Assembly (NCBI RefSeq): GCF_009931435.1
Contig: NZ_CP043414.1
From: Escherichia coli
GTDB taxonomy: Bacteria; Pseudomonadota; Gammaproteobacteria; Enterobacterales; Enterobacteriaceae
Length of the DNA: 64,000 bases
Strand: one strand, 5' to 3'
Numbering within the stretch: the stretch's first letter is position 1; each line of letters opens with the position of its first letter. The notes beneath the pieces were generated by a model that did not search any database, was not told the DNA's origin, and saw nothing but the letters and a program-made list of their open reading frames with translations. The position numbers were made by a program, and so were the translations under genes. This document shows, one piece after another, positions 60,440 to 60,983 of the stretch.

Positions 60440-60983
60440 TATTATTGTCTCTCTGTATTCCTTCCCTACTCCTGTCTGACCCTGAAACATCACTGTTCAG
60501 AGTCGCTACCCGTCACGATAGACCGAAATCATTAAGATTCACGGCGCGCAATGCCTGGTCTACGGTGAGAAGACCGTTGCCTGGTGGCAGCTATCGACAT
60601 CACGAATGGCGTCTGTCCACGCCATACGTAGATTTCACTAGCACGGTAAACATGGTATTTACATGCATGGTTATGCGCATATAAGAATACTGTTTTTTTT
60701 CTTCCTCGAATGTTTTCGCAAAACACCAGGGGATTGTCAAAGCAAAACATCGATTTTTAGTACAACATGCCAGATATTCATTAACAGGGGCGTTTATTCA
60801 TCATTTAATCGGCTTATAACGCGGGAAATTTAAGTAGCAGAGGTGATAATGCCGGAGGGAGTTTGACCTACTTATCGATACTGCCGATTGCACAAATTGT
60901 TAACAAAATCGTCATACTCTTTTTTTACGTCTGTAAATTCCCTACAATCCTGCCCATTGTCTGCCAACAACTATGGGGATCTC

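Follow-up and report, generated by a model that had tools for sequence, protein, structure and literature searches.

The 544-bp interval between lrp and trxB (60440..60983 of the window, the term used here for the whole 64,000-nucleotide stretch of Escherichia coli DNA that was analysed) is in all probability, at roughly 0.9, the divergent control region already described for E. coli lrp and trxB, and most of its length is accounted for by untranslated leaders. Nearly all bases of this conspicuous gap can be assigned to published elements, and the gap was dropped as a candidate novelty. Every one of its major features has already been published, and the differences between strains are trivial. 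What retains interest is a covariation-supported hairpin in the lrp leader that displays a site for the small RNA GcvB, together with a published RNA 3' end, as yet uncharacterised, at the base of that hairpin. The analysis adds to the published record the covariation support for this GcvB-presenting hairpin, its tie to the Term-seq end, and an OxyR-like motif upstream of trxB that is seen across species.

Extent, annotation and conservation of the gap

The interval was delimited from the ORF list and from the RefSeq annotation of a genome that is 100% identical over it, and both leave it without coding genes. On one side lies the lrp coding sequence (59945..60439, minus strand), which was identified from its ORF and translation and from the same RefSeq annotation, encodes 164 amino acids and starts with the ATG at 60439..60437. 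On the other side lies the trxB coding sequence (60984..61949, plus strand), taken from the ORF list and that annotation, with its ATG at 60984. The first-pass annotation had described the gap as one of the longest non-coding stretches, and it is indeed the second-longest annotated gap in the window, exceeded only by that between ompF and asnS (601 bp). The A/T skew toward trxB is also real, with a GC content of 36–42% over ~60600–60950 versus 50–55% over 60450–60600. Of the two sequence examples that had been offered for this skew, the quoted AT-rich string is present at 60753..60788; the T8 run exists as well, but its position had to be corrected from 60686 to 60693..60700. Two short ORFs that had been named as spurious were recovered, one on the plus strand (60445..60684, 79 aa) and one on the minus strand (60532..60750, 72 aa). 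The former is antisense to the lrp leader. The latter begins 5' of the lrp transcription start and thus cannot be encoded by the lrp mRNA.

A divergent trxB-lrp pair separated by 429–851 bp was present in 77 of 77 Enterobacterales species with enough flanking sequence. Because the same divergent pair and a long gap recur in all of these species, the length of the gap is not a matter of chance. When the 544-bp sequence was used as a query, 5425 of the 5426 complete E. coli genomes gave a match. The gap is 100% identical to that of E. coli strain 2020CK-00188 and 98.2% identical to that of K-12. As a separate observation, at least 99% identity to the window's version of the gap is found in only 17 of the 5426 genomes. 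Ten differences separate the window from K-12; all of them fall at poorly conserved positions and none within a mapped site, so that both promoters and every mapped site have the K-12 sequence unchanged. Six of the ten, including a 1-nt indel, are located within 60853..60881, the least conserved spacer.

Cross-species conservation was assessed by aligning the gap from 77 species, and its conserved blocks fall on the mapped elements. These blocks comprise the trxB -10 hexamer, the T-run of the -35 region, a block at 60874..60910, part of the Lrp region, the near-invariant lrp -35 and -10 hexamers, the A-rich leader 5' end, the stretch ~60575..60650, and the last ~60 nt before the ATG. Conservation is low in the middle of the leader (~60509..60564) and in the spacer 60812..60873, to which no element could be assigned and which is largely poorly conserved by both the comparison with K-12 and the 77-species alignment.

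Promoters and regulator-binding sites

Start-site profiling of K-12 (Kim et al. 2012, PMC3415461, supplement) places exactly two transcription starts in the gap, one for lrp and one for trxB. The lrp start has a 267-nt UTR and the promoter string ...TTGACAATCCCCTGGTGTTTTGCGAAAACATTCGAG, and maps to 60705 of the window (minus strand). The trxB start has a 28-nt UTR and the promoter string ...CCCTACAATCCTGCCCA, and maps to 60956 (plus strand), 251 bp away. The lrp leader (60440..60705, minus strand) is 266 nt long in the window and 267 nt long in K-12 owing to a 1-nt deletion near 60556, in agreement with the earlier suggestion that the length of the gap reflects a long lrp 5' leader. Together with the 28-nt trxB leader (60956..60983, plus strand), it brings untranslated leader to 294 of the 544 bp. 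Outside the gap, the same profiling data contain a start for ftsK inside the lrp coding sequence (K-12 version-2 coordinate 932152, 295-nt UTR), which lies at ~60105 of the window (minus strand) by a coordinate conversion made without an indel check. A terminator hairpin for lrp, CAACAGTACTAGGGTAACCTGGTACTGTTG followed by TCCGTTTTAGC, is located between lrp and ftsK at ~59858..59892 (minus strand) and corresponds to a Term-seq 3' end at K-12 position 933176.

Upstream of the mapped lrp start is a core promoter (60712..60740, minus strand) that consists of the -35 hexamer TTGACA (60735..60740), a 17-bp spacer and the -10 hexamer GAAAAC (60712..60717). The arrangement is correctly spaced for a sigma-70 promoter with a start 267 nt upstream of the ATG in K-12, and its sequence is that of K-12. 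A generic promoter and terminator scan of the gap returned no useful match and missed this genuine promoter because of its poor -10 hexamer. The DNase I footprint of Lrp, for which limits of -106..-20 are quoted from Wang 1994 in PMC6640053, corresponds to 60725..60811 of the window. This putative autoregulatory region is identical to that of K-12, the source of the footprint, and is moderately to highly conserved among the 77 species. The multiple Lrp autoregulatory sites that had been postulated therefore have a published counterpart here, and the AT-rich string quoted earlier is contained within it (-48..-83). Lrp would repress its own gene at this promoter, which combines a perfect -35 with a poor -10 and is both overlapped and flanked by the footprint. 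Describing the gap as a control region between divergent genes, with a long leader for lrp and with Lrp sites, was thus right, and this is already documented.

A DNase I footprint of ArgR has been reported at +29..+65, over two ARG boxes of which the downstream one carries the non-consensus residues C4, C5, C13 and C14 (PMC6640053). In the window, this operator is located at 60641..60679 within the DNA encoding the leader, has the K-12 sequence, and consists of two 18-bp ARG boxes 3 bp apart (+27..+44 and +48..+65). The downstream box, ATACCATGTTTACCGTGC, falls at +48..+65 and has C at positions 4, 5, 13 and 14, which independently confirms the numbering from the start at 60705; other starts do not fit. 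ArgR bound at the two boxes modulates the autoregulation of lrp.

The core promoter of trxB (60917..60956, plus strand) was located from the mapped start (60956) and is conserved. It combines a good -10 hexamer (TACAAT, 60943..60948) with a weak -35 that lies inside a conserved T-run (60917..60929). Farther upstream, at -82..-46, is the conserved block 60874..60910 (plus strand), a candidate site for OxyR or another LysR-type regulator that would place a potential activator upstream of this short-leader promoter. The block shows an 11-bp periodicity of the form ATnG-N7-CnAT-N7-ATnG. It was compared with the OxyR tetrad consensus ATAG-N7-CTAT-N7-ATAG-N7-CTAT over 16 positions; the window differs at 7 of the 16, as would be expected by chance, and lacks the fourth element. 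Across species, the best OxyR match within ~140 bp upstream of trxB has at most five mismatches in 45 of the 77 species, a count that is not made up of independent cases as the species are related. The frequency of OxyR matches in the flanking sequence outside the gap, taken as background, is 5.8e-5 per position. In most of the 45 species the match occupies the homologous position and is oriented the same way, and in two of them, from Edwardsiella (L036 and L055), only 2 of the 16 positions are mismatched. Hafnia (L054) likewise has a site close to the consensus.

The consensus of the SoxS/MarA/Rob marbox is AYnGCACnnWnnRYYAAAY, and ATTGCACAAATTGTTAAC (60887..60904, plus strand) resembles it, probably by coincidence. 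A marbox reading was set aside, as only ~30% of the species keep the G of its critical GCAC.

In E. coli, exposure to H2O2 raises trxB expression. In a Xenorhabdus oxyR mutant, trxB is slightly lower, and the same paper terms trxB an OxyR-regulon gene in other gamma-proteobacteria; no documentation of OxyR control of, or OxyR binding at, E. coli trxB was found in the literature examined. It is plausible that the block binds a LysR-type activator such as OxyR. If the OxyR-like site is real, it would tie thioredoxin reductase to peroxide sensing across the Enterobacterales, a connection already assumed for other gamma-proteobacteria.

A conserved hairpin and the small-RNA sites of the lrp leader

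As a whole, the lrp leader folds more stably than shuffled versions of itself (z = -2.6). The most robust element of the fold is the extended hairpin at 60590..60642 (minus strand), an imperfect 53-nt structure with 20 base pairs and a GGACAG loop (60613..60618), which has a predicted folding energy of -23.8 kcal/mol (z = -3.34). Covariation in this hairpin was examined in an alignment of 43 Enterobacteriaceae species. Over the 20 pairs, 96.5% of the alignment cells are paired, and nine of the 20 pairs have been altered on both sides. None of 500 shuffles matched the observed values, and sliding the 3' partners reduced pairing to 21–48%. The hairpin thus displays the compensatory substitutions that mark a conserved structured RNA, and its GGACAG loop is invariant in all 43 species. 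The alignment was also used to build a covariance model, which had a single match in the window and, elsewhere, matches in Enterobacteriaceae only; it did not recover divergent hairpins of the Serratia type, and the range beyond Enterobacteriaceae is not quantified by the model. The sequences from Serratia (L064 and L077–L081) have a different leader hairpin, ~90–120 nt upstream of a conserved GGTCTT block, in which GACAG is seen in the loop by eye (for example, GTTGTGCAGGGTTGACAGACAGGTTGCACAAC). This suggests that the placement of a GcvB site in a loop predates the version found in Enterobacteriaceae. The minimum-energy fold also contains a small hairpin, UGCC-ACCA-GGCA (60578..60589, minus strand), for which four pairs that are 88.9% paired and show zero compensatory changes give weak support.

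GcvB- and Hfq-dependent repression of lrp is a literature result, according to PMC12152304, which cites Lee & Gottesman 2016 for the positions involved. There, the R3 region of GcvB is described as pairing with GACAG at -179..-175 and at -39..-33 from the ATG, a translational enhancer is assigned to -69..-40, and MicF and DsrA are described as pairing at the lrp start codon. In a GcvB pull-down, lrp was among the most enriched partners (547-fold), and RNase E-dependent decay of the lrp mRNA requires GcvB. Complementarity to the CUGUC core of R3 is present in the lrp leader of the window at positions that agree with those given in PMC12152304. In the hairpin, all 9 nt of UGGACAGAC (60611..60619) are complementary to GcvB nt 156–164, and this match is referred to as site 1. 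A 9-nt GcvB complement is also held by 18% of shuffled leaders, so the match by itself is not significant; it does agree with the published site at -179..-175 and with the invariance of the loop. Site 2, CAGACAG (60472..60478, minus strand; -39..-33), lies just upstream of the ribosome-binding region, falls in a block that is conserved in the 77 species, and is covered by the strongest GcvB duplex predicted anywhere in the leader (-29.1 kcal/mol over 60457..60481).

The remainder of the leader can be described from the same alignment and from the comparison with K-12. The reported enhancer corresponds to 60479..60508 (minus strand) and is partly conserved among the 77 species. The stretch upstream of it (60509..60577, minus strand) is poorly conserved and carries a K-12 substitution and the 1-nt indel; conservation is mostly 10–30% from ~60564 to 60509, with a conserved GGUCUUCU block at the 5' edge. 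At the 5' end of the leader, the A-rich tract AAGAAAAAAAA (60693..60703, minus strand), which is the T8 run of the opposite strand, is conserved in the 77 species and is possibly an Hfq-binding (ARN)n tract. The form in which this conserved 5' end is written, GGAAGAAAAAAAACAG, resembles the (ARN)n motif for the distal face of Hfq.

These features are consistent with a long leader that would serve as a platform for the control of lrp by small RNAs. GcvB R3 would pair with two GACAG sites, one presented in the loop of the hairpin and the other just upstream of the ribosome-binding region, and would render the lrp mRNA sensitive to RNase E, and MicF and DsrA would pair at the start codon.

An RNA 3' end within the leader and related systems

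The first-pass annotation had proposed that transcript maps with only the lrp and trxB mRNAs would speak against a further RNA in the gap. The Term-seq data contain one extra 3' end, which is located inside the lrp leader at 60603 (minus strand; K-12 932430, plus strand; supplements of Adams et al. 2021, PMC7815308). According to these supplements, it is the sole 3' end in the gap, is entered three times in the 3'-end file with growth conditions on separate tabs (~9,700 and ~9,600 reads in two of the entries), and is placed in the 'orphan' class, 165 nt upstream of lrp. The Rho score assigned to it, 0.84, is not significant, and its intrinsic-terminator score is 7.37 versus a threshold of 3.0; lrp is absent from the text of that paper. 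In the window, the end is 103 nt from the lrp start, which implies a leader fragment of that length (60603..60705), and it falls 3 nt beyond the 7-bp upper stem of the hairpin, within the 3' arm of the extended helix.

Most likely, the end is that of a stable 5' leader fragment of 103 nt. We infer that the mRNA would be cleaved downstream and that 3' exonucleases would then halt at the hairpin. Such a processing or decay intermediate is favoured because a U-tract is lacking after the hairpin, where the sequence is UUCGUGAUGU, and because the terminator scan was null. The published score of 7.37 argues against this preferred reading and conflicts with the missing U-tract. Two features expected of an intrinsic terminator are present, namely a GC-rich hairpin (the 7-bp upper stem within the -23.8 kcal/mol structure) and a mapped end that does not depend on Rho; a U-rich tract directly 3' of the hairpin was not found. 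Weak hairpin-dependent termination is accordingly less likely than processing. An RNase III origin was considered since the hairpin has ~20 bp, but lrp is unmentioned in the text of either of the RNase III papers. A table of one of these studies (Gordon 2017) includes a 21-read entry labelled 'trxB-lrp intergenic' at K-12 932082, which is ~60952 of the window; it sits 4 nt from the trxB start and is uninformative about the end at 60603.

Other explanations of the end and of the gap were weighed against processing of the lrp leader. The hairpin could act as a Rho-independent attenuator at which some polymerases stop near 60603, setting the output of lrp mRNA and possibly being modulated by GcvB and Hfq. 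The above-threshold terminator score together with the lack of Rho dependence, the threefold entry of the end in the 3'-end file, where growth conditions have tabs of their own, and the stability and conservation of the hairpin would all fit; but the UUCGUGAUGU that follows the upper stem is not a U-tract and instead makes up the 3' side of the extended stem, the scan found no terminator across the gap, and an end within the extended helix, only 3 nt beyond the 7-bp upper stem, is better explained by exonuclease trimming, so attenuation is considered unlikely. The 103-nt fragment (60603..60705, minus strand) could also be a stable, Hfq-binding decoy that acts in trans and titrates GcvB R3 by means of its A-rich, Hfq-type 5' end and its GACAG loop. 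Its 3' end is discrete and is entered three times in the 3'-end file with its separate tabs for growth conditions; the loop, invariant in 43 species, provides a perfect 9-nt complement to R3; lrp ranks with the partners most enriched by GcvB; the known sponge SroC also binds R3; and other 5'-UTR fragments were shown to be regulators in the same Term-seq study (Adams et al. 2021, PMC7815308). Against this, the text of that study does not include the fragment, regulation of lrp in cis already explains all of the sequence features, and 18% of shuffled leaders also contain a 9-nt complement, which leaves a sponge function with a low probability, lower than that of attenuation. If the fragment arose by regulated termination or acted as a GcvB decoy, the feedback loop between Lrp and GcvB that governs amino-acid metabolism would gain an extra layer, and as a sponge the mRNA leader of a global regulator would also feed back on the GcvB amino-acid regulon.

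The gap had also been singled out as the place in the window where an unannotated small RNA or a leader peptide would be most likely, and neither is supported by the data collected here. The best candidate peptide is encoded by a 26-codon ORF (60600..60680; MRITMHVNTMFTVLVKSTYGVDRRHS) that is present in the transcript and has a UGA stop codon directly after the 60603 end, so that stop and Term-seq end abut. In ~60% of the sampled Enterobacteriaceae, an open ORF terminates at this UGA, but its start shifts from +20 to +70 among species without a convincing Shine-Dalgarno sequence, and it is missing from many species that retain the hairpin. Of the three codon positions, the third varies least (entropy of 0.36, versus 0.57 for position 1 and 0.46 for position 2), the reverse of a coding pattern; the substitutions are compensatory at the level of RNA, and the ribosome-profiling supplement of Stringer 2021 holds no small ORF in the gap. 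The apparent conservation of the peptide is a by-product of the RNA structure, and a translated upstream ORF was rejected on the grounds of ORF conservation, codon-position entropy and the lack of a Shine-Dalgarno sequence, its chances being slight in the extreme. An independent small-RNA gene in the non-transcribed 250 bp between the two starts (60706..60955) has as little to recommend it. The ~60 bp of 60812..60873 have no assigned function and would offer room, but they are among the least conserved parts of the gap. Moreover, the starts in the gap are limited to those of lrp and trxB (Kim 2012, PMC3415461), its only 3' end lies within the lrp leader, and scanning yielded no promoter-like or terminator-like site that could form a pair. 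An Rfam scan of 59800..61200 with a permissive E-value returned chance eukaryotic matches only and no family. Processing of the lrp leader, with the hairpin as a barrier, is the preferred reading of the 60603 end.

The elements of the gap can be compared with three known systems. Like OxyR-activated promoters, the trxB promoter has a block at -82..-46 with an 11-bp periodicity, and 2–5 of 16 positions are mismatched in many Enterobacterales; unlike those promoters, in which the tetrad abuts the -35, the match in the window is poor (7 of 16 mismatched) and has no fourth element. The lrp leader fragment resembles the ChiZ and IspZ 5'-UTR fragments (Adams et al. 2021) in having a discrete, Rho-independent 3' end by a stable hairpin in a long 5' UTR; it differs from the fragments of that study in being known from Term-seq alone and in having no clear U-tract of the kind described for ispU. 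The closest counterpart is the K-12 lrp promoter/operator with its 267-nt leader (Wang et al. 1994; Lee & Gottesman 2016; Charlier group 2019). Relative to K-12, the leader in the window has the 1-nt deletion (~60556) and two substitutions, all at poorly conserved positions, and the other differences are mostly in the spacer 60853..60881; the mapped elements, namely the -35, the -10, the start site, the Lrp footprint region, both GACAG sites for GcvB and the ARG boxes, have the same sequence in the window as in K-12.
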